Positions 19,345-64,000 of a stretch of DNA of 64,000 nucleotides are shown one piece after another. Source of the DNA: Macrostomum lignano (Eukaryota); NCBI GenBank assembly GCA_002269645.1, contig NIVC01001116.1, positions 35,222 through 99,221 on the forward strand, in the 5' to 3' direction. How positions within the stretch are numbered: the stretch's first letter is position 1; every line of letters starts with the position of its first letter. The notes below the pieces were generated by a model that was not told the DNA's origin, did not search any database, and saw nothing but the letters and a program-made list of their open reading frames with translations. A program made the translations under genes and the position numbers.

Positions 19345-19345
19345 C

Positions 19346-19367
19346 TGGTGGTCAGCTAAGTGGGATT
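19346..19367 (+). promoter_or_regulatory. Primer-binding site, tRNA-Leu-like
   Basis: TGGTGGTCAGCTAAGTGGGATT one base after the LTR end; resembles the common gypsy PBS TGGTGTCAGAAGTGGGAT. Confidence 0.6.
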
Positions 19368-19412
19368 ACAAAATGCCGAAACCCCTTCAACGAGTCGTTC
19401 AAGTGCTATACT

Positions 19413-20720: not shown

Positions 20721-20899
20721 TGCCAGTATCGCGCCCGAGCGAAACAGCAGCTCGGGAAATGGGACGGCTGGACGCAACATCGGGGGCAGCACCATCCAGC
20801 AGCCGAGCCAGCACTAAAGTCCCCGCCGCGGACTTTAGTCGCTCAGCAGGCCACTGCTAAGACCGCCTCCGCCGCACCTGTACAGCCATTTGCACCCAA

Positions 20900-41500: not shown

Positions 41501-44500
41501 CCACTTGGGCACCTGACTGGCAAAGTGTCTGGCATTGTGCCGGGCAATGGTCAGAGTGCCGTTCGGTTGATGCTCTCTGTGCAAGGTGAAATTAGTATCA
41601 ATGCCGATGTTCCTTGGGTCGCGAGTTGCCGACAGTACCGTGATGAGGCTTGGATGAGACTGGAAACCGAATTCCGACATTAATCTGGCCAGCGGCGTAG
41701 TCTCTGGTAGCCACATGTCCTCTGTGTAGCTGTAGAAGTGAACTGTGAGAGGGTGTTAAAATACATAACTTTACTTTTTGTTTATTCACTTGGTCTCGAT
41801 TGTGTACAAAGTGTCGCCCAAGTCTTCACGATTTCCTTGAAATGGACACTTCTATTTCCTAATGGATGCTAAATGTCATAATGGACACTTCTATCACATA
41901 ACGGACACTTATGGGTAAAAGCTAAATCGAAAGCTATGGGGGACATGCCAATGCTTCGTCCTCCCCCAGCCTTGTGACCAGTTACTGAAATCAATAGTTT
42001 TCCTTCAAGGACGCGTTTGCTTCATAACAATCACAAACGCTATTTTCTGGAATTGAGCAACCATTTCGCTGGAACGTTCATCTAAAAACATCGTCCTGTC
42101 AGCACCGAAAATTCGTTAACTCTCACCGTCGCCAAACAGTGTGCTCTGCGGCTGGTGAGCAATGCCACCCTCCCACTCTGTAGCGTCTCCGTTACTAGGC
42201 GACGATAATAGCACCAGTCGAGTTGAGTCCTCAGCAACCACCTGCTGTCTGACCAATCGCATGTACAGTTTTCTATAGTCGTCATAGTAACGCTCGGTTT
42301 GGTTGGCCCACAATGACCACCAGTCGTTGGCCAGAGCGCCTTCGTTCTCGTTGTTGCCAACCCAAACGGCCAGACTGGCTCTGTGCTGAAGCCGGCGAAC
42401 AGTGGCTCGAACTTCCGACCTCACTGTTGACAGAAATGCTTCGTCAGTAGGATAGAGAGCGCAGGCGAATGGGAAATCTTGCCAAATCATTATGCCCAGC
42501 TGGTCAGCGAGGTCGTAGAATTCGGCTCGTTCAATTGTCTGATTGCGATTGGTTTTCATCAGGTGAAAAGAGAGTTGAAGATGACAACTGTGGTTTTACT
42601 AATATATAAAATTCGTAATTTGCTCAATATCAATCGGGATGGATTTGTACAGCCTAGGCTTAATCTTGACTGAGATTTTCCGTAAGTTCAGAAGGTCAGA
42701 CTCGGAAGTTTAGACGATGAGACCCGGATGTTCAGGGAATGAGACTCAAAAGTTCAGGGGGATGAGACTCGAAAGTTCAGGGGATGAGACTCGGAAGCTC
42801 AGAACGTCAGGCTCGAAAGTTCAGAAGTTCAGACTCGGAAGTTCAGAAGGTCAAACAAAGAAATCCCGAAGGTCATAAGTAAAGTAAAATATTGCAGCTT
42901 GTTAGATCATTTCTATGGCGAATATTAATGACATAAACTACGGTAAACTCACAGAGAGTCGACCAACCAGCACTCACCCCTCCACCCCAGACGCGTAGCA
43001 TGTTGATGCCAGCAGCAGCAGCCGACCTCATCAACCAATCATAGTCGCTAACATCCGCTCCCGGAATGCTCATCCCAATCGGTACAAAATTCGAGCCTTT
43101 AATAAACACCGGCCGATTATTGACCACCAGATTGAAATTGAGTCCCTGACCAAGTTCATTACCAATCGAATTTTGTAGCAGTTGAACTTGACGAAACGCT
43201 ACCTGTCGGGTTTCCCAGTTGTCCAGCAGACGACAGTCTGGACCATCAAGGCACAGACGAACTCGAAGGGTGTACAGACGCTGACTGCCGTAACCGTTTG
43301 GCCACCAAAGGTGAGGATTGATCTGTTCAAGTTAAGTTGATTTAATGCTGTTTTTTAGCGCAAGAACTCACAAAAATACTTAAGATTCAAGCGAAAAATC
43401 AAGACTTTGGTGTCACATCCAGGGCAATAAAGTTTAACTATGAGTTTACTCAGAATGAAGAGTTTTGCGATTACAACTTGTGCGAGCTAGATCCATGCAG
43501 GACCAGAGTCTGTCAAAGTAACTTTTAGTCTGTAAGGCGACAAATTTAAAACCTTACCGATGCGCCACATTCAGAACAAATAGTTTAGAGTCAAATCCAC
43601 GCAACAAAGAGTTTAAAGCCACATCCTCAACTAAAAGTTTAGAACTAGACACAAAACAAGAAGTTTAGAGCCACATCATCACACACCCAGAACAATGAAT
43701 TTTATGCTACGAAAAACTAAACGCCATAATCCGCCATATATTCGTATATCAATCTTTAATAATAACATTTCGAGTTGTTGGTTGCTAATTGTTGGTTGAG
43801 TAGAAAACAACTTCGAGCGTGATAGTAAATTATGCAATATTTTCGGAGAAATATAAATCCAATTACTTACAATCTGATCAAACCTAACGTCGACAGTGAA
43901 ATTACTCTCTGCTGCATCAATTATAGACGGTTGGGGCGAAGTCTCTGAGGGCAGTTTGACGCATCGTTTCAAAGATTCCGTCAGTTCGTCTATCTGAGCA
44001 ACGATGCACACCTGACCAATTTTCTGATCGAACCTATCGCCAAATTTCACACCAGCAGTGGCCATTGCCCACCAAGCGTTGCTGCTGCTATCGAGACTCG
44101 GTGAGGCCGTAAATTTGACATAGTCTATGGCCAAACCCGAGTACAGGTCCAAATAGACTGCGCGCCTGCGGGAGACATTTTGTAGCCGCATACCAATATC
44201 AGCAATGTTTCGTTAGTAATCCGAACCCTCGATTGAGAATGTATTTTGAAGAACATTTCTCGTGCAAGAATTACATTTTACACTAGCCACACTCTTTGTG
44301 AATAAAATTAAGGAGGCAAAACGGATATTTGCAAACATTTGCAATATAGGTCGTATTTTCATAAATTTGCATCGTGCTACTGAGAAATTTTATAAAATAA
44401 GTAGGCTTATGCGAATTTTAATACTTTTTTGTAGTCGTGAGAATAATTATTTAGCATTCCGTGAATATTCTATGGCTTAGGTAATAAAATACACTAGAAT

Positions 44501-47500
44501 TAAAATAGAAAATCCGCTACCAAGTAACCAAGGTAACCCAAGGTGTAGCAGTCTAGACCGTAGTCGACTCTTCTTAACTTTTAAAGCTGTCAGTGAATGC
44601 ACATATAAACCCACTATGGGTGAATGCACCCATAAACCCGTAAAACGACACCACAACTAAATGAACTTCAAAAGTTCAACGACTCACCAAAGTCCCGACG
44701 TTGGTACCGCCGGGCCCCAGTCCCAGCTGAACGAATAGGCTGGCTTGCGAATGAAATTGAAGTAACACTCGCCGTTGTAGGTCAACGGCGGACAGTCTGG
44801 CGGCACTGGATAGCCAAACTTCGATGCGTAATTCTCTGCAGCTTGTCTTGCATAGACAATGGGAGACGTCAGGCTGACTGTGAGGTTGTTCTCTCCAACC
44901 TGAGGGGGATACATTTGTTGATTTGACCCCTGTCAAAACTTTTTTTAGGTCAGTGAACCCATTTGTAAGGCTTGACTAGAAAATATGCCACAACAGTAGC
45001 GCTACCAAGAAGCAAGGTCGAATCGCCTCAGCAGTACTTGGTTGTGGGAAAATGTCGCTGAGAGCGTTGCGTCAGGGTGGACCTACATAGATTCTTTATT
45101 ATAAACGCTCCAAAGTCCTGAAATTTTAGCAAGCAACTTACAACTAACAAGCTCTTCACACTGATTCGGTACTCTCTCCAGTAGTTATCGCAGCTGGCTA
45201 TTAGATGACGATTGTTCAGAATCACCTGACCGATGGTGTCAACACCATCTAGTACCAAGTCTATTGCGGCCGATGATTGGGCAGCGCTGTGGTTGACTGA
45301 AAATTTTCAAACGTAAAGTAATATTTATGTCGAAAATTGTTGCTTAAAGTTCTTTCTAAGCGAACTCCTAGACAGTAGGTTGCTGAGCAGCCACCACCGC
45401 TCAGCAGGTTGCTGCGCCAGCCTCCCAGATCCTCAGTGGCTGTACCAGCATCCCACATCCAGAGTTGCTGGGCCAGCCTCACAGATCCTCAGTTGCTGGG
45501 CCAGCATCCCAGAGTGTCAGTTGCTGGGCCAGCCTCCCAGACCCTCAGTTTCTTGGCCAGCGTCCCACATCCCCAGTTGCTGGGCCAGCATCCCAGATCC
45601 TCAGTTGCTGGGCCAGCCTCCCAGTTTCCCAGTTGCTGGGCCAGCCTCTCAGATCCTCAGTTGCTGGGCCAGCCTCCTAGATCCCCAGTTGCTGAGCCAG
45701 CCTCCCAGATCCCCAGTTTCTTGGCCAGCCTCCCAGATCCCCAGTTGCTGAGCCAGCCTCCCAGATCCTCAGTTGCTGGGCCAGCCTCCCAGATCCTCAG
45801 TTGCTGGGCCAGCCTCCCAGATCCCCAGTTGCTGAGCCAGCCTCCCAGATTCTCAGTTGCTGGGCCAGCCTCTCAGATCCCCAGTTTCTAGGCCAGCCTC
45901 CCAGAGTGTCAGTTGCTGGGCCAGCATCCCAGAGTGTCAGTTGCTGGGCCAGCATCCCAGAGTGTCAGTTTCTTGGCCAGCCTCCCGGATTTTTTCTATC
46001 TTTCTGTCTCCGAGGGCATAGCGTGGCAACTTTAATACATAAAGCATCATTGCATTAAACTCTGATGTTTGGAAACAGCTATTCGGTTTAGATGTTTACA
46101 AAATAGCAGCTCAGTTTTTTTAGAAATTTTCCACAAAATTTCCGCAGAGTATTCGTAGGACTAGAAGCCTGGCCACACCCAAGCCACTCTCAGTATCTCA
46201 GTACGCCGGTACTTAATTGCTTTGCGTTCAATACTTGAGCATTGACAAGCATGCGGTGAGCTCTCAACTGCTTTCCTTACTTTCTTGTGAAACAATAGCA
46301 TGAATTGTCACAAGCATTGCCATTCTGCCACTTTGCGTCACATTTCTGTCTTGTTTTTGAATCTGCGCAGCCTCCACTGAGACTGAAATCCACTTCGCGT
46401 TCATTCTGAGCAAAAAAATATGCTTATATTATAGTGTGTTTTCGCTATTGAAAAACATTGCTACTTTCGGAGCATTGTGGACAGGGGAATTCAAGACAAT
46501 GGTGTATAAAATCTGAAAACGCACAATAAATTTCTTAGACCAGTTGAGCCAACCTCATCTATTCGTTAAGCAATGCACAGAGCGGCTACTGAGTCTGTCG
46601 GACAAGCCCCAAATTTGCTTTTTTTCTCTTTTAATTGTCCTTCTGGCATCTGCATCTCTCTCACTTCACCTGACCTCTATTTCTCTGTCCTATTTGTGAA
46701 AAATATGTTTTTCTCGCACGCAAATTGCTACGCTCGCACTGTTCAACCAAAAAAACAGAAGCTTTTCTATCTCTCTCTCCCCCCCCCTCGTATTCACCAT
46801 GGCAACCGAGTGTTATAAATGGCAGGATTTCTCAGTAATTTTTTTTTCAAAAAGCAACGACAAGCAACAAACTTCTAAGAAATACGGATTGCAAATATGA
46901 AATACTTGATTGTCTCTGTTGCCATTTTGGCTGCTTTTATCTGTAAGTTTCCAATATTAATTCTCTGTAACCTGTTAGATACAGAGGAGTCACCTGTTAG
47001 ACACAGAGGAGTCACCTGTTAGACACAGAGGAGTCACCTGTTAGACACAGAGGAGTCACCTGTTAGACACAGAGGAGACACCTGTTAGACACAGTGAGTC
47101 ACCTGTTAGACACAGAGGAGACACCTGTTAGACACAGTGAGTCACCTGTTAGACACAGAGGAGACACCTGTTAGACACAGAGGAGACACCTGTTAGACAC
47201 AGAGGAGTTACCTGTTAGACACAGAGGAGTCACCTGTTAGACACAGAGGAGTCACCTGTTAGACACAGAGGAGACACCTGTTAGACACAGAGGAGACACC
47301 TGTTAGACACAGTGAGTCACCTGTTAGACACAGAGGAGACACCTGTTAGACATAGAGGAGACACCTGTTAGACACAGAGGAGTCACCTGTTAGACACAGA
47401 GGAGTCACCTGTTAGACACAGAGGAGTCACCTGTTAGACACAGAGGAGACACCTGTTAGACACAGTGAGTCACCTGTTAGACACAGAGGAGTTACCTGTT

Positions 47501-50500: not shown

Positions 50501-53500
50501 CACTGACTCTTTCCCGACACCCACTGATTCTTTCCCGGCACCCACTGACTCCTTCCAGACACCACTGACTCTTTCCCGACACCCACTGATTCTTTATCGG
50601 CACTCACTGACTCCTTCCAGACACCACTGACTCCTTCCCAAACACCTACTGACTCTTTCCCGACACCCACTGACTCCTTCCCAAACACCTACTAACTCCT
50701 TCCCGGACACCACTGACTCCTTATCGACACCACTGACTCACATCCGACGTTTCTAATTACTCCTTGATCTAACCCAAGCAATTTTAAATAAGTATAAAAT
50801 GACTGTGCACTCATTTTGTTAAGTCTACCGCAGCAAAACCGAATTTTGCCCCTATACAGGACAACTTTGCTGGTTGTGGCACCTGCTCCGGGTATTCTTA
50901 CACCACCTGCAAAGCGTGCACTGCCAGCTACTGCAATACTCGACCGCCTGTTCTGAACTGTTACTACAGCAATGGAGACTATCTTCACAGCAGCCGAAGG
51001 AGGAGGAGATGTGAAAGTAGCTATTGCTATGAGTACAGCTTTACCTATGCTACTATCGATGTGAGTTTCAGACTCAAGTCGGAGTGCTGAAGTAATGTCT
51101 AATTTTATAATTTTATAGAATTAAAGTATAAAAATCTCTTTAACGGTTAGACAGCATCTTTGACCTGTTAGACAGTGACGTCAACCTGTTAGACAGTGAC
51201 ATCAACCTGTTAGACAGTGACATCAACCTGTTAGACAGTGACGTCAACCTGTTAGATAGTGACATCAACCTGTTAGATAGTGACGTCAACCTGTTAGACA
51301 GTGACGTCAACCTGTTAGATAGTGACATCAACCTGTTAGATAGTGACGTCAACCTGTTAGACAGTGACGTCAACCTGTTAGATAGTGACATCAACCTGTT
51401 ATACAGTGACGTCAACCTGTTAGACAGTGACGTCAACCTGTTAGATAGTGACATCAACCTGTTAGATAGTGACGTCAACCTGTTAGATAGTGACATCAAC
51501 CTGTTAGATAGTGACGTCAACCTGTTAGACAGTGATGTCAAACTGTTAGACAGTGACGTCAACCTGTTAGACAGTGATGTCAACCCGTTAGACAGTGACG
51601 TCAACCTGTTAGACAGTGACGTCAACCTGTTAGATAGTGACATCAACCTGTTAGATAGTGACGTCAACCTGTTAGACAGTGACGCCAACCTGTTAGACAG
51701 TGACGTCAACCTGTTAAACAGTGACGTCAACCTGTTAGATAGTGACATCAACCTGTTAGACAGTGATGTCAACCTGTTAGACAGTCTTCAACAACACTAG
51801 TATTGTCCCCATCATCATAGATCTTCTTCGCCGGCTGTGGAGAGTGCTCAAAGCTCGACTCCTATAGCAACTGTAGAGCCTGCAACAGCGGGGACTACTG
51901 CAACTCTGCCGCCAGTCTTCGAGGCTGGAATTTTACCGCCTTCGCCACCGCCGTCATTCTGGCTATGATTCGGTTGCTGTGACTCTGTTAACAAATGTCT
52001 GTCACGTGTTAACTTCAAACAGATTTATTTATTCCTGATTACCTCGTCTGACGCTTCTATTAGCCATCACAGCTCGCATTAACTGTCTCATCTGACAGAG
52101 TGGATGACCGCGAACCTATCCAGATACAGGGTGAAACAACTTGATGAAGAATAAAAACTTACTGATTGAAAAAATGTTTGTTTTATTATATATTCACTTA
52201 GCAGAGAATGCTAATATTCAATAACTAGTTGCCCTTTCTTTCATGAACAAATTTATTGTTTATTTTAGTGGAGCAGAAGGTTTGCTGGACCAGCCTCCTA
52301 GATCTTCAATTGCTGGACCAGCCTCCCATAACCCCAGTTGCTGAGCCAGCCTCCCAGATCCTCATTTGCTGGGCCAGCCTCCCAGATCCTCAGTTTCTTG
52401 GCCAGCCTCCCTGATCCTCAGTTGCTGGGTCACCAGCCTCCCAGATCCTCAGTTGCTGGGCCAGCCTCCCAGATCCTCAGTTGCTTGGCCAGCCTCCCAG
52501 ATCCTCAGTTGCTGGGCCAGCCTCGCAGATCCTCAGTTGCTGGGCCAGCCTCCCAGATCCTCAGTTGCTGGGCCAGCCTTTCAGATCCTCAGTTGCTTGG
52601 CCAGCCTCCCAGATCCTCAGTTGCTGGGCCAGCCTCGCAGATCCTCAGTTGCTGGGCCAGCCTCCCAGATCCTCAGTTGCTGGGCCAGCCTTTCAGATCC
52701 TCAGTTGCTTGGCCAGCCTCCCAGATCCTCATGATGTGTTCCTTATTACCAGTCCTCAACTGTAATCAAGGAACAATCACTTCTAGCTCTGTAGCTAGGC
52801 AACCCAGTAATCAAATGAAGGTATTCAATTACCTTTGAGTCCTTAAATGAGAGCTCTCGTAATAATCCTCGTCCGTAGTATCGCGATCAGTAACTTTCCT
52901 GTCCTTCAGGAAGTTTAGGCGCCTGGTAACAGTTGATCTGGTCCGTTATCTCCTTTGTCCTCTTGACTTCTTGCCGGCCGGTATCTGTAGTTCGGACCAA
53001 TAAGAAGCTTCCAAATTAACAATGGGTACCCTGCGCCAAACTGCGGTTTAATATAAGCCTACTCCTTCTAGTAGTGCCTCTATGCACTCTAGGTATGGCT
53101 CCGGAAACCACTGATAGTCTTCTAAGATCTATCAGGGGCAGTCCTTCTGGAGACTGCAACCAGTGGAGTCTAAACAGACTCAAGAGTCTCAGCAGACTCA
53201 AATAAACTCAAGTCTCAATAGACTTGAGCGAGACGTCTCAACCAACGGGCGCAAATGAGTAAGGCTTACCGCAAGAACTCGTCCACGACGCGAGTTTCTT
53301 CAGGAAGGCTTCACTAGAGCTTCCTCTTCGGAGCTTCTCTCCCTTGGAGATTGTTGGCTCCGGGTCCGTTCCGGACCACTTGTATTTATAGGCGTTCAGA
53401 CCTCTCTCGAGGTCGTACATCACTGTCTTCGCAAATGTCAAAGGGTCACGATTCGGTGGCTGTCAAGCATGACAGGGTAGAAAGTTGCGCAACTAGTCTA

Positions 53501-56500
53501 CTGTAAAAGCGCATGATTGGTTACCGTAGCTGGTAGACTTTGATTGGTTCATCCGGGTGCAACCCGAGTGCAAACAAAATGATGACTTGAAGGTGGGGTT
53601 TGAATTGACAGTTGTTGGTCGCACGTGATTGGGTGATTTCTAAAATTAGCATGCTCGAGGTCTCTCTCTTCCTATTGGTTAGTCCGAATATACTTATAGT
53701 TCAAAGCATACCTTTATTCATGCTCTTCAATTTACTACTAAATAAAATGTGTGAGTAGTACATTAACACTTTTATGTCTTCTTACGGGAGGTAGAACACT
53801 CTACAAAATCTCCCATGTTTACAAAAAAACTCGTCCCGAGTTTTAAAGAGAGGATTGAAACGCATAAAAAGTTCAAGCATGTCTTTATAATAATCATTTG
53901 TCATAAGTGTTACAGGTATTTAGTAATGGGTAGTTAAGAGCGTTGGTTATAAAAGTTATTTAAAGGTAAGTATACGCATGCAAATAAAATGTTTTTGGTT
54001 ACAGTATTGACATGTGCGCCAAGACTAACAATAGGCGCACTGCCGCAAACTACTTCTACCTATCGGGTAATTCTGCCAGAGCTGAATATAATGTGAGTCG
54101 CTTAAACATTGTCCGCATATGCGATGTCTGTTTTCACAAATAATTGGTGGCTTGACAGCCAAGTCATCAGTTAAACATATTGGGCATTCGTAGAGTTGCT
54201 GTAGTTGGGGCGCCTGTTTGGACAGTGCGTTGCCCATTGTCGTTGTCGCTTGAAGTTTGAAGTCGCTCAGATTAGTCGCCTCTTACGACAAGCTTGCGAA
54301 GCTGTAGAGCTATTCTGACCCGGTCTCTACACGGGTTGTTTTCGCAACTTAACGAGGTCGCAGATTGTAGCCATGGTGCTGGTTCTCGGTTGATGTTTGT
54401 GTCTCCTCGTGTTTTGTTGCGATGTGGCGGTTCGCCGAACGCGTGCGATCAGCGTTGCCTAGTGACGGTAAAAATGTTGTCGTGTCAGTGTTGATCTTCT
54501 TTAGTCGATGAATGTGCACGTAGAATTGGTGCTGATGAGGATCTTGCACATTGGCCAGGCGTGCCGTTGTCGGTGACGTTAGTTGGACCACTCGATATGG
54601 TCCTTTGTACTTCTGTGCGTGTTTGTGCGTCTGTTGCGGCGGATAGTGCAGGTAGACGATGTCGCCGGCTGTCAGAGTTGTCGATCTCGTGTCGGTGCCG
54701 GTGGTTAGAGCCACCTGATTGTCGATGTTGTGCTTGGCTACTTTCCATGCGAGGTGTAGTTGCGTGACGAACTTTTGAATGGACGTCGGGACTTCCACAT
54801 ATTGCGATGGTAGTAGTTGCTGTGCCAATAGGTTTGGTGGTTGGAAGTCTCGTCCAAACATTAGAAAGAATGGCGTATTGTCCGTTGATCGATGAATAGC
54901 GCTGTTGTAGGCCATTGTTACTGCTTGCAGATAGATGATCCAGTCGTCCGGTTGTTGATGCGCGAAGTGTGTAATCATCTCGTGTAGGTTGCGGTGAAAC
55001 CTTTCAACCATGTTCGCCTTCGGATTGTAGGTCGATGTGTAAATCTGCGTGATGTTGAGGATCTTCACCACTTGCTGAAAGAGTTGAGACGTAAACTGCG
55101 ATCCATTGTCCGATGTGAGGTTCTTTGGCGTACCGTACTTGCAGATGATGTCGTTGAAGAAACCCATTGCCACTGTCTGAGCTGTGATGTCCGGTATTGG
55201 TATGGCAATAGCAAACTTTGAGAAAATGTCCAAGGCTGTTAGGATGTAGGTGTAGGCTATGCCATGGAGACAGCTCGGTGGCAGCGGTCCGGTGATGTCG
55301 ATGCTGAGACAGTCCATAGTTGTTGACTTTGGTATCGATTGTAGCTGTGGTTTTTGTCGTCGTCCTGTCTTCGATGCTGCGCATGAGTGGCAGTTGTTGC
55401 AATACTGCTTGATGTCGCCATGCATGCTTGGCCAAAAGTAGTATTGCTCCACTCTTGCAACGGTTTTGGCTGCCGACAGGTGTCCAGCGAGTGGGTTGTC
55501 GTGCAGCTCGTTGAGAATTGCCTGCCTAAACGAATATGGCATGTAGATTTTAGGTTTGTTGTCACTCATCCAGTAGAGTCGTGACTTGTTGATTGTTAAA
55601 TGTTGTCGCTGCTTGCGCAGGAATTTTCGTTCCACGGGGCTGAGCTTGATGTCCTTGTCGTTGTTTTTAACTGCTATGTAGAAGTTGTCGTGTTCCGTCT
55701 CATCCACCAATTCCTTGATGTTAGGGATTGGATGAATGGCGTTGACTTCGTAGGCTCTTGACAGGGCGTCCGCGGCCTTGTTAGTAATTCCTGGTTTGTA
55801 GACGAGCTTGTAGTTGTAGTCCTGGATCTTGAGTGTCATCCTGATGAGTCGGTTGTTTGTTTGTCCTTTTGTAGTTACGACGTAGGTCAGCGGTGCGTGA
55901 TCTGTGCGTACTATCGTCTGTAATGGAGATCCATAGATGTAGTAGTGAAACTGTCGTAGGGCGAACAGAACTCCTAGTAGTTCTCGTTCCGTAGCTGACC
56001 ATTTTGTCTCATTCGGTTTAAGTGCTCGACTGACGTAGGCTATAGGTCGTTCCTTTTTGTCTTCAGTTTCCTGTAGTAGGACTGCTCCGAGTCCCGTTCC
56101 TGAGGCGTCTGTCTCGATGATGAAGGGTTTGTCGAAGTCCGGATGCTGTAGCAGTGCGTCTGATGTCAGCTGTCGTTTGATTTCGTCAAAACTTTCTTGT
56201 TGCTTTTGTGTCCAATTCTCCTGCTTCCATTTGTCGAACTTGAGCAGGTCGTACAGCGGCTTTGCTGTCTTCGCGAAGTTGGGTAAGAACTTTCGGAAGT
56301 ATTGCGCAAGTCCAAGAAATGATTGGACCTTCGTTTTGCTAGTTGGCGTAGGAAACTTTTTCACTTTATCCACGTTGTCTGGGTCCGGTGAAATTCCTTT
56401 GGCTGTCACCTGATGTCCCAGGTAACGCACGTTGTCTCGGAAGAATTTGCATTTAGTTGGTTGTAGCTTCAGACCTTGACGTTGTATAAGCGCGAGGGCC

Positions 56501-59500
56501 TTCTCCGTCGCTTCATAGAGTCGTTCGAAGTCTTCTCCGTAGGCCAAGATGTCGTCAACATAGTGCAACAGGTTCGTGCATCCTGCAAGCATGTATGCTG
56601 TTAGTCGGCTCATCGTTGCTGGGCTGTTGCTGAGTCCCATCGGCGATCGATTGTACTCGTATACTTGTCCATTGTAGGTTTTGAAAGCCGTGTACTGTCG
56701 TGACTCTTTCTCGATTTCAATTTGCCAAAATCCATGACGTAGATCGAACACTGTGAACAATTTTGCCGTGTTGAGCTTTGCTAGTAGTTCGGAGATCTTC
56801 GGTAGGCTTTGCTGATCCGTCGGTATGTACTTGTTCAGTAGTCTGAAGTCACATACGAGTCGTCTTTCGTTAGTCTCCTTCTTTTGCACCAAGAGACATG
56901 GTGATGAGTATGCTGAAATGGCTTTGCTGATGATGCCGTGTTTCAGCATTTTGTCGATAATCTCATCGAAGTGCTGTTGCAGATGCTTGGCGATCGGGTA
57001 CGGTTTGCACTGAATTGGTTCCGTGTGCGGCAGAAGTTTGATTTCCTGTTTGATGTCCTTGGCTCGTCCGATGTCGTAGTCATGGTGGCAGAAAGCGTCG
57101 TTGTACTTCCACAACAGCTGTCGAACTTTCCTCTTTTGCTGTTCCGTAATCGGGCTGTCATCCAAATTGATCTTCTTTTGAAATTCTTCCTCTGTTAGTC
57201 GTGGAGTCGCTTGCTCAATCAGCATAACCGATGCTTGGGTGTTGAGATGACCGATGCACATTCCTTGTCGTAGATGAACCGTTTCTGTGTTCGGGTTGAA
57301 TATTTGTACTGGCAGCTGTTTATCTTTTGCAACCAGTACTAGTGCCGTAGGCATCATAATTTGGTGTTTAGCCGTGACTCTTCTGTTTGGGTCGAATATC
57401 ATTGCTTCCTCCGTTGCGTTAGTTGCCTTTGCCTTTATCCAGCAGGCGCTCTCCGGTTGGATGATGACATCTTGTTGCAATGTTACTTTTGGTAGTACTC
57501 GGATCTGGTTGATCAATGGTTGTTCTACCGAGTCGATCTTGAACGTTTGCTTATTGAAGTCGAAGGTCAATGGTAGTCGAAGCTGCTTGAACGTGTCGAT
57601 GCCAACAATAACGTCCTGGTTTGGGAGTCTGTCGATGACGTACGTTGGAACTGTCAAATGTTTATTAGCGATTCTTAAATCAATGTCGGCTTTTCCCAGA
57701 ATGTTTAGCGAATGTCCTCCTGCTCCTGCAACTGCGATTGTTGCTGGCCGTAGAGCAAGTCGTAGCTTGTTGCACAGTTGTTTTGATATAACTGTGATGG
57801 AGCTGCCGGAGTCGAGTAGCGCTCGACATGGTAGATTGTTGATTACCACTTGAGCCATGGCTTTGCCAATTTCGGCGTGTAGAGTACATACGTAGTTCTC
57901 TGGCCATTTTGGGTCTTGCTGTTCTGCTTGATAGTTAGGTGGTTGTATTCTTGGTGCCGTTGGTGTTGTCGGAATCGATGGATATAGCCGCGTTGCTAGT
58001 GTCGGTTGCCCTTGAACCTCACGATGTGCAGTTTCTGTTAGTTCTAAACTGTTGTCGCCTTCCGTTGTCGTTCTTTGCATTATGGCATTCACTGTCTTCT
58101 TAGCTTTGGACAAGTTTGACTGAAGCACCGTACGATCGACGAAATGATGAAGATTGCCGTGACAATCCACACAATGCAAGCACCGTAGAAGATGAATCCT
58201 TGATAGAGACTGCCTCTTCCATTGAGCAGCTCCCAGAAGCTGTTTGTCCAAAATGATTTGATGGCGCTGTCCATTGAAACAAGGACGGGAAATCTTCCTG
58301 TCCCGGTTCCTTTGTCCTTTCTTGTGAACAGCTGGTGAATCATCTTGCGTTGGGTGATGAACGCTTGCAAGAAGTCGTTGATCGTCCATCCTGGTGTTAT
58401 CTCGTCAAGTTGGATATCGGCGAATGGCGTATACTTCGTTCTGTTGAATCGGATTTTCAAATCCTCCATGTCGTAGTTTTCGTCGACGATTACTTCCGGT
58501 TCTGTGATGTTTGCTGTCGTTCCAGTTGTTTTGATGACGTGTAGTGCATTGTCCAGTTGATAATAGTTTGCTGCCGTGGTGCAAGGTCTCGGTATTGCGG
58601 TGCCAACGATGATGTTGTGTACCGTGTCCAAGAATCCCTGAATTCGTTTTCCTTCGTAGAACGCTTCAATCCTTGGCTTGTCGTAGCAGGTTGTTGACGT
58701 GTTCGACGGCAAGATGTTAAAGTGCTGTATCGGCGTGCACTTGTATATCAACAGATGCTCGTATATTGGAACTGCCAAAACGTTCGTCATTCCGGTGATT
58801 TTACGAAAAGTCATCGTAGGGTTGACATAGTAGTTTTGTCTGGCATAATTTAAGTTGATTGCGTGCATTTTGCAAGTTAGCTGGACCAGTGTTCGATGCA
58901 AGTGGTTTAACTGGTTGTGTAGATTGTGATCCAAAGCCGTTATCTTTGCTGACAGTAGTCGGTTTGACACCAGTTTGGGACGTTCGATGTCACGTCGTCG
59001 TCTGTTCTGTTGTTCCTGCTGTTGATACGTTCCGTTGATGATCGCCAGAAAGGTTTGTTTGTCGTCATCTTTTACGTAGACTGGTATCTCTTGTTCCGAG
59101 ATGAATAGTGTCTTGTCTGTATCCTTGCATTTCAGTTTTTGCTCGACTGGTTTCTTTTGAAACGTCAGTGCCAAGTCTCCTGACTTTGCCAAAAACGTGT
59201 TTGACAGTAGACCTCCTTCAACTGTGTGATACTTTTGAAGCTTGCAGTCAATTTCCGGCTCAACTTCCCACGCGAAGAAGTATTGTCGTGACTTAGATGG
59301 TTCTTCATATCGTGAGTCGCCTCTGCGTATAATTTGCCATCGATAGTCTTGATGATATGTTGGACTCAACGGTAAGCTGTATAGTTCCTCATTCCGCAGT
59401 ATCGGCGTTGGACACCATCCTTTGCTGTATCGGCAGTCGCTTAATTGCAGTTGTAGCGACTCCATTTTTTCAAAAGGATTGTGGTAGAATGGAATATTCC

Positions 59501-62500
59501 TGATTAGGTAACTGTTTCGTGTCATGTAGTTAGTCCATGCTTCCGAAAAGTGTACATATCGTCCGTTTGCTGAGTTCTTCGTTCGGTAAAGTTGTGCCTC
59601 CCCCACTTTCTCATCCGGTTCTAGCTGACCATCCTTTGAGAACAGTGTTTGGTTCCATTGTAGACATTCAGCGTGCGACACATGTAGTTCGTGTTGCCAA
59701 AATCGAATTCTGTTCCATTGTCCTCGCCAAACTTTTTCCACTAGGTGCTTGTCTCTAAAGCACACTATTCCGAGTTGTCGATGCTTCTTGATGTTAGCTT
59801 TGTAGAGATCAATTGTGATCTTCTTTGGCTTCGTCTGATTTGTCTTGAAGTAGCTGCATTTGATGTCGGTTGGTATCTTGTAGATCATCGGTTGGATATG
59901 CGCATCCGTTGGACATATCATTGGTTTTCCATTGCTGTTGCTTTGGTGACTACTGCCGTCAGTAGTATTATGATGATCCAGAATATCCAGAATCGCCATT
60001 TTCTGAACGTTGCCGTTGTCTTTGCTGGCATTGGCTGCGGCTGCCATTCGTTATCTTCTGCGTCCGCATCGTATTCTTCCTCTTGTTCCATTGGCGTTTC
60101 CGAGCGCAAGGCATCCGATTCGTTCCGCTGCTTGTCGTCTTCATCATTTTCTTCCTTGCTTTCTTCCGATGTTGTAGTTGTGTCACTCCATTGTCTGCGG
60201 TACCTCACTTCGGCCTTGTAGTCGACCGTTTGAATGTAGGCTTCACCATTTCGTTTATATCGGATCTCGTAGCATTGATCGCTGTCGGAGCTTAGATTTC
60301 TTTCTTCCATTCCTTTGTGCCTTCCGTCTTCATGTTCTTTGTCGGCGGCTTGGTTGTCATCAGCGTCATTCTGCATCTCATAATCGTGATCGCTGCTTTC
60401 TTCTTGCTGTTCTTCTTCCATCTCTGCATTTCCGTCGTTGCTTCTTTCGTTGTCATCCTTCGTTGCCAGTTCTTTGTCGTTGCCTTTGTTTGTTTCTTCT
60501 TTTCTTTCACTGATGTCGCTTGCAATGTTTTTTCTGTGCTCACTTCTGTCTTTTCTTCTTCGCTGTCAATGTTAGTTTCTTTCATTTCGACCATGCTGAT
60601 GTTTTTTGTCTTTTCGCTGCTCTCCGCATCGAGCCAGTCGATTTCATTGATAGTGAAGTCCATTTCAAGTCGTCTATCGTGAAGACTTGCTGCTCTTGCT
60701 GTTCGCTTTCCGGTGTGTACGTGATGGCGTTTGCATATCGTTGCATCGCTTGCGTTGGTTGCTTGGGCATGTATCTGGCGTTTCGCGGTCTGTAGCCATT
60801 GTTTCCGAAGCGTTTCGTGTTTTGCTGCTGCCAATTTTGATGTTGTTGCCATGGTTTTTGCGGCTTCCTTCTGTTGAATGGCTGTCGCTGCATGTCATTT
60901 CTTGTTGACCGATGAGGACAATGTATTTGGTAGTGTCCTTCTCGTCCACAGTAATAGCATCTGGCTTGGGCTCGTTCATTTCGTCTTTTTTGTTCGGCGA
61001 TAACGGCTGTTTGATGTTGCATCAGTTTGTTTAGTTGCTGTGTCAGTTTCTGCACTTCTGTGTTGCCGGTTGTCATTAGTGGAGCGCTTGCTTCCCACTG
61101 CATTCCGCACCGTAAAAGGTCTTCCTCGGTTTCAATGTTTTCGCGTAGAAGTCTATCTCGGAGTGACGGCTGTGCATTGTTTATTACGTGCAGAATCAGA
61201 TTTTGTTCGCGATCCATCAATCGCTGTCGCTCTCTAGCGGCTAATTCTGCCGCACCCAGAGGTGGTTGGTCTGCAGCTGGCAGTGTTGGCTGATGCAGTG
61301 CCTTAATTATCTGACGGATGTCGTCCACAAAGGTCAGGAAGGATTCGGTTGGCTGCATCCTTCTGTTATGCAACTTGTGCAGTAGCACTGATCTGTTTGT
61401 GCCACAGCGGTTGAAATGCGCGCGCAGTTGAATGATTAATGCTGGGTAGTTTTGCTGTGTTGCCGCATCTAGTTTACCATAAATCTCTCGTGCAGTGCCT
61501 TGGAGGAGTGGTGGCAACAGTTGCGCTTTTTCTGGATTTTGTAGGTTGTATTCCCTACATACCAGGTCAAAATGATCAACAAAGGTGTTAAAGTCTTTTT
61601 CCATAGAAAAGGTGCCAACTGTCTCTTTGATATCTCTGTGCACCGTTGGATTGCGCCGCGCCATGTTGTTGATGGGATAGAACGGTAGCTCTAGGTCTGG
61701 GTCGATTTGTAATGGATCTTCCAGTGTGGTGTTTCTTTCGAAATAAACTTCGGTTGTAACTGATTGTCTCGCGGCGCTTTTGACACCTCAATTTGTTATG
61801 TCTGACCTTGACGGAATTCGGCTTTTGGCTGCTTTTTCTGACCTCTTATTCGCTGGCTGATTTTCGCACTTATGCGGCGTCCCGCAAAGTGTATCTTTAA
61901 AGTGCTTGAAGTGCAGCTGCTTCTTGCTTTTTTCAAAGGCCTTTCTTGTCTTCGTGACGTGCCTTGTCACGTTTTATCAAATTTCGGTTTGTTTTAGCTT
62001 TCGTCAAGTGTTTTTAATTTCGGTTTTGTTTTAGTGTGTATTGATTATTTTTCGGTTTGTTTTCAGTGTACCGGACGTTGTTTTCGGTTTTGTTTAAGGT
62101 TTACTCTTGCTCGAGCTCGTTAAAAACAAAAATTTAACACGCGTGCTCAAACGTTACTCAAAATTGACAGGTACTCAAGCCTGTATACCTAAACTTTTAC
62201 TCGAGTTTCAAATCGTACAAAAATCGAAAAGTGTCGAAAAGTGTTACCTCTAACACGTGCGCGCAAAATTAATGAAGTCGCTCTTTCGTCACTTTACAAT
62301 AGCTTGGCCAGGCTATTGCTCAAAAGTTTGAGTAGTGCCGAGAGGGCGAGATCACCAATTGATGTGTTCCTTATTACCAGTCCTCAACTGTAATCAAGGA
62401 ACAATCACTTCTAGCTCTGTAGCTAGGCAACCCAGTAATCAAATGAAGGTATTCAATTACCTTTGAGTCCTTAAATGAGAGCTCTCGTAATAATCCTCGT

Positions 62501-64000
62501 CCGTAGTATCGCGATCAGTAACTTTCCTGTCCTTCAGGAAGTTTAGGCGCCTGGTAACAGTTGATCTGGTCCGTTATCTCCTTTGTCCTCTTGACTTCTT
62601 GCCGGCCGGTATCTGTAGTTCGGACCAATCGGAAGCTTCCAAATTAACAATGGGACCCTGCGCCAAACTGCGGTTTAATATAAGCCTACTCCTTCTAGTA
62701 GTGCCTCTATGCACTCTAGGTATGGCTCCGGAAACCACTGATAGTCTTCTAAGATCTATCAGGGGCAGTCCTTCTGGAGACTGCAACCAGTGGAGTCTAA
62801 ACAGACTCAAGAGTCTCAGCAGACTCAAATAAACTCAAGTCTCAATAGACTTGAGCGAGACGTCTCAACCAACGGGCGCAAATGAGTAAGGCTTACCGCA
62901 AGAACTCGTCCACGACGCGAGTTTCTTCAGGAAGGCTTCACTAGAGCTTCCTCTTCGGAGCTTCTCTCCTTGGAGATTTTTGGCTCCGGGTCCGTTCCGG
63001 ACCACTTGTATTTATAGGCGTTCAGACCTCTCTCGAGGTCGTACATCACTGTCTTCGCAAATGTCAAAGGGTCACGATTCGGTGGCTGTCAAGCATGACA
63101 GGGTAGAAAGTTGCGCAACTAGTCTACTGTAAAAGCGCATGATTGGTTACCGTAGCTGGTAGACTTTGATTGGTTCATCCGGGTGCAACCCGAGTGCAAA
63201 CAAAATGATGACTTGAAGGTGGGGTTTGAATTGACAGTTGTTGGTCGCACGTGATTGGGTGATTTCTAAAATTAGCATGCTCGAGGTTCTCTCTTCCTAT
63301 TGGTTAGTCCGAATATACTTATAGTTCAAAGCATACCTTTATTCATGCTCTTCAATTTACTACTAAATAAAATGTGTGAGTAGTACATTAACACTTTTAT
63401 GTCTTCTTACGGGAGGTAGAACACTCTACACTCAGTTGCTGGGCCAGCCTCGCAGATCCTCAGTTGCTGGGCCAGCCTCCCAGATCTCAGTTGCTGGGCC
63501 AGCCCCAGATCCCCAGTTGCTGGGCCAGCCTCCCAGATCCTCAGTTGCTGGGTCACCAGCCTCCCAGATCTCCAGTTGCTGGGCCACCTTTTCAAAATTC
63601 TCGGGCTCTGCACTAACCGTACAACTTCGCCTCGTAGGTCCAGTTAGCATTGGCAACCCAACGCGTTTTGACGTCATTAAACTCGGCGATGGGATCCGGA
63701 ATTATTCCAGCCTGTCGTAAGTCGCTGTAAACATCTCCAGGCACCGAGCCAGGCACTGAGATCGCACCTACAAAGTTGTTAAGTTTGGTGTCATTTATTT
63801 TGTAGAATATCAATCAACTGGGACAGTAAATGCTTCATTTATTGCTCACCATCTGAACGGCGCAGAGCCCATTGAACATTTGGCGTATTTAGTGAGATTT
63901 TTGTCGTAATGGCGAATTATAAAATAACGTTTCGCTTTGCACTACTAGTCTGCCGTTAAACAGTAGAACTGTGAAGACACTATTAAGAAAAATTGTCCAA
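38559..64000 (-). CDS. MANBA: Beta-mannosidase (GH2 family)
   Basis: Exons: 63850-end (signal peptide; apparent 1-bp loss at 63898-63902), 63618-63767, 45142-45296, 44688-44899, 43871-44165, 42978-43322, 42127-42538, 41432-41742, 40525-40974, 39837-40046, 38559-38798 (a GTAAGT near its end may splice to a tiny terminal exon). Motifs FSWDWGP, LWWPNGYG, MLRVWGGG, IWQDF, VWVGNNENE, SEFGFQS, YWQLNDVW. Confidence 0.95.
38846..39705. repeat. 34-bp tandem repeat in a MANBA intron
   Basis: Unit TCAGTGAGCATCCTTATCCCTCAGTGCCGATCCT, highly homogeneous. Confidence 0.96.
45378..45985. repeat. 28-bp tandem repeat (GTTGCTGGGCCAGCCTCCCAGATCCTCA), array 1
   Basis: Same unit recurs at 52285-52731 and 63431-63590. 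Confidence 0.93.
46897..51982 (+). CDS. Two-domain Ly6/uPAR (three-finger)-like secreted protein with GPI signal, 175 aa, nested antisense in MANBA intron 2
   Basis: Exons 46897-46942, 49170-49288, 50860-51060, 51821-51982 are in phase. MKYLIVSVAILAAFISNAAASITCY...FAGCGTC...CKACTASYCN...LNCYY...CESSYCY...FAGCGEC...CRACNSGDYCNSAA followed by a hydrophobic tail. Absent from the ORF track. Confidence 0.85.
46970..49103. repeat. 22-bp minisatellite (CACCTGTTAGACACAGAGGAGW) in intron 1 of the Ly6-like gene
   Basis: Direct tandem copies. Confidence 0.97.
49320..50730. repeat. 20-22-bp C-rich minisatellite (CCGACACCCACTGACTCYYT) in intron 2 of the Ly6-like gene
   Basis: Direct tandem copies with alternating variants. 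Confidence 0.96.
51140..51785. repeat. 21-bp minisatellite (CAACCTGTTAGACAGTGACGT) in intron 3 of the Ly6-like gene
   Basis: Direct tandem copies. Confidence 0.96.
52285..52731. repeat. 28-bp tandem repeat, array 2 left part (continues at 63431-63590 beyond the LTR element)
   Basis: Same unit as 45378-45985; interrupted at CTCA. Confidence 0.92.
52732..53805 (-). repeat. 3' LTR (1074 bp)
   Basis: Direct repeat of 62360-63430; preceded on the minus strand by purine-rich AAACATGGGAGA (PPT-like). Confidence 0.95.
54025..54237 (-). CDS. 70-aa C3HC4 RING protein with N-myristoylation signal
   Basis: ATG in strong context (ACAATGG); MGNALSK; C18-x2-C21-x12-C34-x3-H38-x2-C41-x2-C44-x22-C67-x2-C70. 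Confidence 0.8.
   Translation of the reverse strand: MGNALSKQAPQLQQLYECPICLTDDLAVKPPIICENRHRICGQCLSDSHYIQLWQNYPIGRSSLRQCAYC
54349..58110 (-). CDS. pol: pol: protease-RT-RNase H-integrase, uninterrupted
   Basis: LLDSGS; PMGLSNSPATM and YVDD; ETDASGTG and TDHAPL; LHDNPLAGH...CNNC; IDITG, SDNGSQF, VERFHR; KYKGPY. Confidence 0.96.
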   Translation of the reverse strand, partial: SKAKKTVNAIMQRTTTEGDNSLELTETAHREVQGQPTLATRLYPSIPTTPTAPRIQPPNYQAEQQDPKWPENYVCTLHAEIGKAMAQVVINNLPCRALLDSGSSITVISKQLCNKLRLALRPATIAVAGAGGHSLNILGKADIDLRIANKHLTVPTYVIDRLPNQDVIVGIDTFKQLRLPLTFDFNKQTFKIDSVEQPLINQIRVLPKVTLQQDVIIQPESACWIKAKATNATEEAMIFDPNRRVTAKHQIMMPTALVLVAKDKQLPVQIFNPNTETVHLRQGMCIGHLNTQASVMLIEQATPRLTEEEFQKKINLDDSPITEQQKRKVRQLLWKYNDAFCHHDYDIGRAKDIKQEIKLLPHTEPIQCKPYPIAKHLQQHFDEIIDKMLKHGIISKAISAYSSPCLLVQKKETNERRLVCDFRLLNKYIPTDQQSLPKISELLAKLNTAKLFTVFDLRHGFWQIEIEKESRQYTAFKTYNGQVYEYNRSPMGLSNSPATMSRLTAYMLAGCTNLLHYVDDILAYGEDFERLYEATEKALALIQRQGLKLQPTKCKFFRDNVRYLGHQVTAKGISPDPDNVDKVKKFPTPTSKTKVQSFLGLAQYFRKFLPNFAKTAKPLYDLLKFDKWKQENWTQKQQESFDEIKRQLTSDALLQHPDFDKPFIIETDASGTGLGAVLLQETEDKKERPIAYVSRALKPNETKWSATERELLGVLFALRQFHYYIYGSPLQTIVRTDHAPLTYVVTTKGQTNNRLIRMTLKIQDYNYKLVYKPGITNKAADALSRAYEVNAIHPIPNIKELVDETEHDNFYIAVKNNDKDIKLSPVERKFLRKQRQHLTINKSRLYWMSDNKPKIYMPYSFRQAILNELHDNPLAGHLSAAKTVARVEQYYFWPSMHGDIKQYCNNCHSCAASKTGRRQKPQLQSIPKSTTMDCLSIDITGPLPPSCLHGIAYTYILTALDIFSKFAIAIPIPDITAQTVAMGFFNDIICKYGTPKNLTSDNGSQFTSQLFQQVVKILNITQIYTSTYNPKANMVERFHRNLHEMITHFAHQQPDDWIIYLQAVTMAYNSAIHRSTDNTPFFLMFGRDFQPPNLLAQQLLPSQYVEVPTSIQKFVTQLHLAWKVAKHNIDNQVALTTGTDTRSTTLTAGDIVYLHYPPQQTHKHAQKYKGPYRVVQLTSPTTARLANVQDPHQHQFYVHIHRLKKINTDTTTFLPSLGNADRTRSANRHIATKHEETQTSTENQHHGYNLRPR
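58089..60000 (-). CDS. env: Envelope glycoprotein, class III (herpes gB / chuvirus G-like)
   Basis: Hydrophobic signal WRFWIFWIIIILLTAVVTKATA, Cys-rich ectodomain with NxS/T sites, furin-like RRRR at 58992-59003, gB-like NPTMTF...LLIYKCTPI and CYDKP segments, C-terminal TM FIFYGACIVWIVTAIFIISSIV. Confidence 0.8.
60001..60670 (-). CDS. Acidic linker between the Gag nucleocapsid region and the Env signal (frameshifted in this assembly)
   Basis: Parts of track ORFs 60292-60852 and 59918-60421; D/E-rich. Confidence 0.6.
60582..61664 (-). CDS. gag: gag (capsid + CCHC nucleocapsid)
   Basis: FNTFVDHFDLVC...LLQGTAREIY, RRMQPTESFLTFVDDIR, zinc knuckle CYYCGREGHYQIHC. Confidence 0.92.
   Translation of the reverse strand: MARRNPTVHRDIKETVGTFSMEKDFNTFVDHFDLVCREYNLQNPEKAQLLPPLLQGTAREIYGKLDAATQQNYPALIIQLRAHFNRCGTNRSVLLHKLHNRRMQPTESFLTFVDDIRQIIKALHQPTLPAADQPPLGAAELAARERQRLMDREQNLILHVINNAQPSLRDRLLRENIETEEDLLRCGMQWEASAPLMTTGNTEVQKLTQQLNKLMQHQTAVIAEQKRRNERAQARCYYCGREGHYQIHCPHRSTRNDMQRQPFNRRKPQKPWQQHQNWQQQNTKRFGNNGYRPRNARYMPKQPTQAMQRYANAITYTPESEQQEQQVFTIDDLKWTSLSMKSTGSMRRAAKRQKTSAWSK
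62344..62357 (-). promoter_or_regulatory. Primer-binding site (tRNA-Val-like, inferred)
   Basis: TGGTGATCTCGCCC two bases after the 5' LTR end. Confidence 0.65.
62360..63430 (-). repeat. 5' LTR (1071 bp)
   Basis: Direct repeat of 52732-53805. Confidence 0.95.
63009..63303 (-). promoter_or_regulatory. LTR U3 promoter: TATA box with four upstream CCAAT boxes
   Basis: TATAAATA at 63009-63016 (minus strand); CCAAT near 63142, 63169, 63254 and 63299. Confidence 0.6.

Follow-up and report, generated by a model that had tools for sequence, protein, structure and literature searches.

The element in the window (the whole stretch of Macrostomum lignano DNA analysed, 64 kb in length) is a young Ty3/gypsy (Metaviridae) LTR element; in its unbroken copies, an envelope gene related to herpesvirus gB belongs to one gag-env-pol reading frame of about 2,500 codons. 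We consider it likely, with a probability of about 0.75, that this frame yields one polyprotein that crosses the ER membrane twice and arms virus-like particles with a fusion protein. Since env is related to gB and lies within one long frame, it likely helps the element to pass between cells. The coordinates of all features are given in Table 1.

Table 1. Features of the gag-env-pol element, in the order of its reading direction; positions are those of the window.
Feature	Position	Strand	Remarks
Target duplication, right	63,431-63,434		4 bp
5' LTR	62360..63430	-	1,071 bp; TG...CA ends on - strand
Primer-binding site	62346..62357	-	12-mer, 2 nt from LTR
Gag	60890..61664	-	Capsid-like region from first Met, then zinc knuckle
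CCHC zinc knuckle	~60,918-60,959	-	Within Gag
Linker	59993..60889	-	Long, acidic, low-complexity; frame-broken near 60,670 and 60,520 in window copy
TM1, predicted internal signal anchor	59933..59992	-	Basic residues on N side; frame break just after, near 59,930
Env ectodomain, class III (gB/nyamivirus-G-like)	58203..59924	-	574 aa, 12 Cys, 6 N-glycosylation sequons
Candidate fusion loop 1	59715..59729	-	Two Trp at tip of long domain-I hairpin (model strands 52-67, 70-80); putative role
Candidate fusion loop 2	59535..59558	-	Aromatic patch Y/H/F/W (model and alignment); putative role
Furin-type site R-x-K/R-R	58992..59003	-	Directly before central helix
Central long helix	58824..58961	-	46 residues, H322-367 in both models; domain III equivalent
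TM2, predicted stop-transfer anchor	58131..58199	-	Basic residues follow; in window copy, frame break near 58,105
Pol	54349..57852	-	Pfam and tree
Aspartic protease	~57,595-57,852	-	Pfam
RT	~56,407-56,886	-	Pfam
RNase H	~55,816-56,214	-	Pfam
Integrase	~55,021-55,539	-	Pfam
Short polypurine tract	53806..53817	-	Adjoins 3' LTR; read from sequence, presumed role
3' LTR	52732..53805	-	1,074 bp
Target duplication, left	52728..52731		4 bp

The element carries LTRs with TG...CA ends, a primer site and a target duplication, and its protease, RT, RNase H and integrase follow each other in this order with gypsy-type Pfam domains. Alignment of the two LTRs showed 3 mismatches and 1,067 identical positions. 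The 12-mer of the primer site is present with at most one mismatch in 45 of the 57 fetched 9.9-kb loci, and a search of the 64-kb window for tRNA genes found none. In one sister copy the target duplication measures 5 bp. The RT groups with gypsy-type RTs in a quick tree built without named GyDB reference elements, where five BEL/Pao RTs of the same genome form a separate long branch, and Pfam gave no match to the Pao-type pol domain PF05380 in the element. BEL/Pao (Belpaoviridae) membership was thus rejected, and the Pfam domains and the RT tree bear out the gypsy host proposed in the initial annotation. Regarding Gag, the CCHC zinc knuckle can be read directly from the sequence, while the rest may tentatively be taken as capsid from its position, the match to DUF1759 reaching only E 0.002. 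There is no space for a matrix domain upstream of the capsid-like region. The linker appears to be under little constraint, because its codon variants comprise 12 synonymous versus 21 non-synonymous changes.

From stop to stop, the env frame covers 58,089-60,050 on the minus strand (653 codons) and contains every motif from which a class III fusogen had been proposed (C..IYKIP..C..ITIDLYK, VSHAECLQW, CRYSKGWC, RRRR, NPTMTFRK...YKCTPI and CYDKPRIEAF). The extent of the protein differs from that of the frame: the first ~42 codons lie outside it, because the signal anchor sits in another frame beyond the break near 59,930, and the frame end past the C-terminal membrane anchor likewise results from the break near 58,105. 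The resemblance exceeds what chance would give. The window protein matched the Pfam family PF24664 (Monjiviricetes_fusion) with E 2e-5 and 23.2 bits, under the curated cut-off of 27, and the same family matched all ten aligned envelopes of this genome (best E 2.8e-10). When a profile built from these ten envelopes was compared with the PDB, Epstein-Barr virus (EBV) gB was the best match (E 4e-13) and gB accounted for 14 of the 16 rows at E<=0.003; a further profile search gave gB in 51 of 52 rows, with a best E of 1e-18. In the profile alignment, the NPT...C.P. and CY..P segments of the window env fall onto the same segments of EBV gB. Single-sequence searches were less productive, as the window protein found no match in the PDB, and searches for relatives gave one at near lengths and two at longer lengths; the best ESM Atlas score (0.89) serves only as a lead. 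The furin motif occupies the aligned place in all ten envelopes at identities down to 23%, and the whole ectodomain with its 12 Cys is likewise kept across families 23-27% identical. The aromatics of the candidate fusion loops, namely the Trp pair at the tip of the hairpin and the second patch, are present in the window family but weak or poorly conserved in the alignment of distant families. Among 20 copies, env codon variants number 101 synonymous, 45 non-synonymous and 1 stop, an excess of synonymous changes that points to constraint.

The predicted fold agrees with the profile evidence at the level of domains. An initial AlphaFold2 model, built on 10 sequences, reached a pLDDT of 52 and was superseded by the ectodomain model used here (pLDDT 76, pTM 0.55), for which Foldseek returned gB with E 5e-20. 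Herpesvirus gB was followed by rhabdovirus G and thogotovirus GP among the matches; the structural check recommended in the initial annotation yielded, for a monomer model, a class III protein as the top match. In VIA-align, HSV gB reached Z 11.2, versus 6.4 for Chandipura G, 6.0 for Thogoto GP and 5-6.4 for PH domains, and domain IV of PRV gB was matched with Z 10.4 and an rmsd of 3.7 A over 162 residues. The model contains the class III set of a beta-hairpin fusion domain, a PH-like domain, a long central helix and a beta crown. However, the whole-chain TM-score to gB is 0.24-0.28 with an rmsd of ~30 A, i.e., the domains match but the overall arrangement of the monomer does not. A trimer prediction for residues 300-574 made without an alignment scored 0.29 against a mark of 0.32, which speaks neither for nor against a trimer. 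Taken together, the profile matches to gB, PF24664 in ten of ten envelopes and the domain-level matches of the model support the class III, gB-like nature of env. The initial description as gB- or chuvirus G-like was right for gB but too narrow as to chuviruses; among the best 50 viral models listed, several of which are unnamed, nyamivirus glycoproteins ranked at the top together with herpesvirus gB, and rows named chu-related or chu-like stood below them, the first at rank 18.

The element order is gag-env-pol, with env between the capsid and the enzyme parts. In at least four divergent families of this genome and in many nematode records, env is the middle of a single frame and not a third gene. 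This inclusion of env in one reading frame had been missed by the initial annotation. Of 39 other copies chosen by DNA similarity, 4 carry a complete frame of 2,480-2,538 aa with two membrane anchors; 11 of 76 env matches fall within open frames 2,461-2,538 aa long, and the layout recurs in families that share just 22-26% env identity. In each of the six families examined, the two hydrophobic segments are bordered by basic residues on the side predicted to face the cytosol. Among the 148 database relatives examined from the best 150 of 431, which include some gene models possibly bridging breaks, pol domains follow env within one protein in at least 42, a CCHC precedes env in at least 50 and both apply to at least 22, while pol precedes env in none among the matches listed. 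TM1 and env are in frame in 19 of the 23 copies with both anchors, and env and pol in 23 of 33; these counts leave out 5 and 15 copies lacking an anchor. A programmed -1 frameshift between the anchor and env, suggested by the window sequence, was rejected, given the in-frame TM1-env junctions and the lack of a canonical slippery heptamer in frame in one natural full frame. A protease-site motif at the Env tail is conserved in the window family only and was rejected as a general feature.

The window copy itself has four one-base frame breaks (near 60,670, 60,520, 59,930 and 58,105), which are probably assembly errors. Contigs from four sequencing runs lack these breaks wherever a contig spans them, and those of all four runs give an in-frame env-pol junction at full listed depth. 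In addition, the four breaks coexist with only 16 codon changes and near-identical LTRs. In the window copy and 19 of the 39 fetched copies (the others being three rearranged or cut copies and 17 partial or more distant ones), 82 of 88 indels are one-base deletions versus 4 stop codons, deletions outnumber insertions 87 to 1, and 13 indel sites recur in several copies. If the breaks were real, which we regard as unlikely, the window copy would be a dead insertion, and copies broken between env and pol could supply extra Gag-Env without Pol. In favour of this reading, the env-pol junction has lost its frame in 10 of 33 copies, which belong to two subfamilies, and contigs drop rare variants. A homopolymer origin of the breaks was not borne out (41 of 82 deletions lie in runs of one, versus 58% of columns), and some breaks may be real, since homopolymer runs show no clear surplus of deletions.

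The single frame suggests the following course. Gag would stay in the cytosol, tethered through the linker to TM1, which would take over the part of the absent matrix domain. Cleavage by signal peptidase would release the ectodomain into the lumen for glycosylation, trimerisation and furin processing, while TM2 would stop transfer and leave Pol on the cytosolic Env tail until the element protease releases it. Particles would then bud through Env-bearing membranes and, through class III fusion, could enter neighbouring cells, which would probably be germline or stem cells. It is odd for particle assembly, and counts against this explanation, that such a chain would give Gag, Env and Pol at 1:1:1. 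No mechanism tuning this output was found in the contigs of the four runs or in one natural full frame; the latter contains no canonical slippery heptamer in frame, and the contigs, which cannot show absence, revealed no splice joint removing env or pol.

Alternatively, env could be kept for intracellular work, anchoring Gag and Pol on the ER for assembly or fusing particles with internal membranes, with no passage from cell to cell. The double anchor by itself would tether both proteins, and the mechanism of transmission outside Drosophila is called unknown in the text of Chary and Hayashi (eLife 2026, PMC13524379), where the entry mechanism of gB-type elements is also left open. However, an ectodomain, 12 Cys and a furin motif retained across such divergent families are more than a membrane anchor needs, and we find a purely intracellular role improbable. 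As for the origin of env, its presence in a gypsy element had been thought to imply an independent capture, in which the flatworm lineage would have acquired its class III gene from a nyami-like virus independently of the elements of nematodes and bryozoans. The Macrostomum gag-env-pol elements do group as a separate clade, with support of 100/99 in RT-RNase H and an SH-aLRT of 94 in env, the window lineage lies outside the equally supported nematode clade (100/99), and a topology uniting all 17 env-before-pol rows in one clade was rejected (p-AU 0.004). Non-monophyly of GAG-ENV-POL elements has also been reported (PMC13524379), but it follows equally from an old gain with loss or exchange. 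Moreover, one clade joining the flatworm and nematode-type elements was not rejected, with a p-AU of 0.43 in the careful RT-RNase H tree (38 hand-picked rows, some from partial records, "no env" meaning none in that protein record) and 0.71 in the quick tree. The top env relatives are other gag-env-pol polyproteins of the same odd layout (E 1e-35, versus 6e-13 for a named free-virus protein). An independent capture is thus unsupported and appears doubtful to us.

A wider reading of the one-polyprotein model, to which we give somewhat less than even odds, is that several old, still spreading Macrostomum gypsy families assemble enveloped particles out of a single Gag-Env-Pol chain threaded through the membrane, much as alphaviruses and flaviviruses use one polyprotein. 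Matrix would be replaced by the Env signal anchor, the Env tail would package Pol and a gB-like trimer would fuse without gH/gL, the layout being shared with nematode elements by descent and not freshly captured.

A gB-type env in a gag-env-pol gypsy element is of an already published kind, contrary to the earlier impression that a class III env in gypsy was unrecorded. HSV/gB-type env has been reported in Ty3/gypsy elements across metazoans, and the GAG-ENV-POL order in Nematoda, Bryozoa and Platyhelminthes (PMC13524379). The supplement of that report lists an M. lignano element with 16 copies (Platyhelminthes_Rhabditophora_Mlig_errantivirus_2, ENV_HSV), and the window family itself has very likely been published. 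Mlig_errantivirus_2, compared by primer site and LTR lengths since the flatworm rows of the alignment file of the report contain no Macrostomum env, shares the 12-nt primer site and its distance of 2 nt to the LTR, and its host species is that of the named protein hits. At 863-864 nt, its LTR corresponds to the 864-bp LTR of a subfamily in this genome with env 95% and pol 96% identical to those of the window. The window copy thus represents a sister subfamily, given its LTRs of 1,071-1,074 bp. The listed LTR spacing of 9,727 matches neither the window (~9,627) nor a measured 864-bp copy (10,810).

What is added here is the anatomy. A word search of the main text of PMC13524379 gave 0 matches for polyprotein, single-ORF, fused or in-frame wording of GAG-ENV-POL elements, one of PMC4604429 gave no passage on this element, and a literature search, one query of which was swamped by an unrelated word, found no other paper on gag-env-pol gypsy elements. 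The predicted membrane-threaded polyprotein remains interesting, as it raises the question, untreated in the eLife text, of how a workable Gag:Env:Pol ratio and the packaging of Pol are obtained from one membrane-spanning chain. Since M. lignano offers RNAi tools, judging from paper titles, and many young copies, this question lends itself to observational work in the animal.

Among known systems, the closest are the HSV/gB-type GAG-ENV-POL "ancient errantiviruses", which share a Ty3/gypsy pol, a gB-type env before pol and an ectodomain between two membrane segments (PMC13524379). The window element has the Ty3/gypsy pol and, ahead of it, the gB-type env of their operational definition, and is intact and multi-copy at the level of the family, the window copy being read with four breaks. 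BEL/Pao elements with a chuvirus-like or gB-like env, also named there, resemble it in carrying a class III env in an LTR element, whereas the window Pol is Ty3/gypsy. A flipped ENV-POL order is cited in the same report for the nematode endogenous retroviruses of Sacco et al. 2022 (J Gen Virol 103:1739, PMID 35550022). Among nematode records, a single protein combines gag knuckle, env and pol in Caenorhabditis and Globodera, and env and pol in Meloidogyne and Panagrolaimus. The elements of Sacco et al. reportedly possess a continuous gag-env-pro-pol ORF and a Nyamiviridae-like env, with which nyamivirus G as our top viral match agrees; the window element differs in its flatworm host, its separate supported RT clade and an env only ~20% identical. 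Finally, the window env shares with the class III fusogens (herpesvirus gB, nyamivirus G, rhabdovirus G and thogotovirus GP) the domain order, long central helix, domain IV, PH-like domain and NPT...C.P...CY..P pattern, but is only 10-14% identical to them and differs in its shorter ectodomain, internal signal anchor and Pol-bearing tail, with no gH/gL-like partner encoded.

The env frame of the Ty3/gypsy element lies between the gag and acidic frames and the PR-RT-RNase H-IN frame, and besides its primer site the element has a short purine tract and is flanked by a 4-bp target duplication. The two LTRs share 1,067 identical positions with 3 mismatches, and this near-identity indicates a young insertion. 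The insertion point is located within a tandem repeat of approximately 31 bp, which continues at 52,280-52,730 and 63,433-63,590 and seems to be present again near 45,300-46,000.

Features of the env-carrying element (window coordinates)
Feature	Position	Strand	Remark
LTR, 1,071 bp	62,360-63,430
Gag frame with CCHC	60,582-61,787	-	
Acidic frame	59,918-60,565	-	hydrophobic segment at end
Env-containing frame, 653 codons	58,089-60,050	-	contains all motifs quoted in the initial annotation
PR-RT-RNase H-IN frame	54,349-58,404	-
LTR, 1,074 bp	52,732-53,805

The homology of env to class III fusogens is secure, owing to the gB profile matches together with the fold matches by Foldseek, VIA-align and viral models; a class III whole-chain shape, fusion loops and trimer are tentative. 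With the window env protein alone, the PF24664 match had an E value of 2e-5, under the cut-off, and the PDB search gave no match. A profile was built from 10 aligned M. lignano ectodomains (23-95% identical to that of the window), each with 12 Cys and an R-x-K/R-R motif ahead of the long helix. Against the PDB, its best hits included EBV gB (E 4e-13), gB accounted for 14 of the 16 rows at E<=0.003, and the segments NPT...C.P. and CY..P, which the initial annotation had compared with gB, were placed opposite it. With a 74-sequence profile, all but one of the 52 rows were gB, at a best E of 1e-18. The AlphaFold2 ectodomain model from the same alignment (pLDDT 76, pTM 0.55) has a helix of 46 residues along with a long beta-hairpin and a beta crown. 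The Foldseek comparison suggested earlier, run on this model, matched gB with E 5e-20 but a TM of only ~0.27. VIA-align gave gB a Z of 11.2 (PRV gB domain IV: Z 10.4, 3.7 A over 162 residues), followed by Chandipura G (Z 6.4), Thogoto GP (Z 6.0) and many PH domains. Among the best 50 matches to viral protein models (BFVD), Beihai rhabdo-like virus 3 (E 2e-24), a member of Nyamiviridae, and Midway nyavirus G (E 6e-24) were at the top, other mononegavirus, entomopoxvirus and herpesvirus proteins came next, and the earliest chu-related name was at rank 18. The class III claim is thus upheld by both profile and model; of the description "gB / chuvirus G-like", the gB part stands and the chuvirus part is probably too restrictive, nyamivirus proteins being the best match among the rows listed. 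Entomopoxvirus proteins were found at ranks 5, 8, 19 and 36, three of them uncharacterised.

A DNA search of the M. lignano genome, in which 40 of 89 candidates were scored, provided 39 copies besides the window. One complete frame from gag to integrase (2,480-2,538 aa) was present in 4 of these 39, and 11 of 76 env matches in the genome sit inside frames of 2,461-2,538 aa. Across 48 fetched copies, 9 of which were chosen for long frames or divergence, NC (the CCHC part of gag) and env are in one frame in 30, env is in frame with protease in 29, and 12 keep a single frame from NC to integrase. The layout of CCHC, TM1 (predicted signal anchor), env, TM2 (predicted stop-transfer anchor) and pol is kept in families whose env identity is 63-65% and 22-26%, with basic residues ahead of TM1 and behind TM2. 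According to the positive-inside rule, such residues are expected of a chain that exposes the ectodomain alone to the lumen. In GenBank, records titled "retrovirus-related polyprotein [Macrostomum lignano]" likewise continue from env into pol. When 1.84 billion representatives were searched with a profile, 431 matches were obtained, the named hosts including Macrostomum lignano, Caenorhabditis tropicalis, Globodera, Meloidogyne and Panagrolaimus. In the 148 relatives examined, pol domains follow env within one protein in 42 and precede it in none, and 22 combine CCHC before env with pol after it. Since elements with a separate env gene would score as "no pol", this count shows that the fused layout is common, without implying universality.

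At least three additional, divergent gag-env-pol families were observed in M. lignano (loci L145, L146, L148, L149, L151 and L152; protein P0016), with env 22-27% identical in these loci and, in some, three CCHC knuckles. Among the relatives, the env-pol polyprotein P0062 comes from a 5.7-kb contig assigned to a Gammaproteobacteria MAG and is probably animal contamination. Copies lying ~10 kb apart (L042/L043 on G000:C669, L054/L056 on G000:C2447) and a duplicated pol part in one copy (loci listed: L042/L043, L054/L056 and L035) represent either tandem arrays or assembly duplicates.

In the window copy, one-base breaks disrupt the frame at four places (near 60,670, 60,520, 59,930 and 58,105), alongside 12 synonymous and 4 non-synonymous codon changes and no stops. 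That such breaks are real could be argued from the lack of a clear homopolymer bias of deletions in 20 copies and from an env-pol junction whose frame is lost in 10 of 33 copies. However, contigs from four sequencing runs are free of the window's breaks wherever they span them, and 82 of the 88 indels in the 20 copies were one-base deletions (1 was an insertion) against only 4 stop codons; 13 break sites were recurrent. Assembly error is therefore the likeliest origin of the window breaks. The out-of-frame junction, found in two subfamilies (L054, L055, L056, L059, L034, L039, L040, L048, L051 and the window near 58,105), is in frame in short-read contigs, unlike those assembled copies, and reflects either systematic error or a real hotspot. 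Synonymous codon variants outnumber non-synonymous ones 39:7 in gag, 101:45 in env and 256:68 in pol, but not in the linker (12:21).

In a quick tree, the element RT grouped with gypsy-type RTs, and five BEL/Pao RTs from the same genome sat far away. In a more careful tree, built from RT-RNase H of 38 selected rows, the Macrostomum gag-env-pol families formed a single clade (100/99); the nematode-type rows, 3 of 8 with a named nematode host, formed a second (100/99). The env tree also unites the Macrostomum families (94), and the env-gypsy association is hence old within this host. Uniting the Macrostomum and nematode-type clades of the RT-RNase H tree was not rejected (p-AU 0.43), so that the independent capture proposed initially is not borne out; uniting all 17 env-before-pol rows was rejected (p-AU 0.004). 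The window also contains a second, heavily frame-broken gypsy-type element (~19,300-25,300, +; RVT_1 E 3e-31, rve, Integrase_H2C2), with no env-like frame seen in the ORF list and an RT far from that of the env element in the quick tree. Host exons at 11,542-14,404 (-) gave PDZ, PX and weak RA matches, a layout which we take to be sorting nexin 27-like, and those at ~40,450-44,200 (-) resemble a glycoside hydrolase of family 2, by eye of the beta-mannosidase type, with one weak Glyco_hydro_2 match.

From the observed single frame and its motifs, we infer a membrane topology and processing route in which the polyprotein likely enters the ER membrane during translation as one chain. Gag, with a capsid-like region from the first Met, would stay cytosolic, held to the membrane via TM1, and the ectodomain would be released from TM1 by cleavage, then glycosylated, trimerised and furin-cut. 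TM2 would send the chain back to the cytosol, so that Pol may be carried on the Env tail into particles and be released from it by the protease; the enveloped particles are then predicted to fuse with neighbouring cells. As for features that could set the Gag:Pol ratio, no splice joint was seen in the contigs of the four runs and no canonical slippery site was found in frame in one natural full frame.

Sacco et al. (2022) reportedly described an uninterrupted gag-env-pro-pol ORF whose env is nyamivirus-like. Our literature search on gag-env-pol elements matched one paper alone (Chary & Hayashi, PMC13524379), which reports HSV/gB-type env in Ty3/gypsy elements metazoan-wide and, for nematodes, bryozoans and flatworms, elements ordered GAG-ENV-POL. 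The gB-env gypsy combination is as a kind already known, and the window env feature is real and its class III reading correct. In the main text of that paper, ectodomains are placed between two membrane segments, a single polyprotein is not mentioned, and the table holds one M. lignano element, compared with at least three further divergent families here. The element family itself is very likely already known: the listed Mlig_errantivirus_2 has the same primer-site 12-mer as the window element, and its LTR of 863-864 nt equals in length that of an M. lignano subfamily with 95% identical env (PMC13524379).
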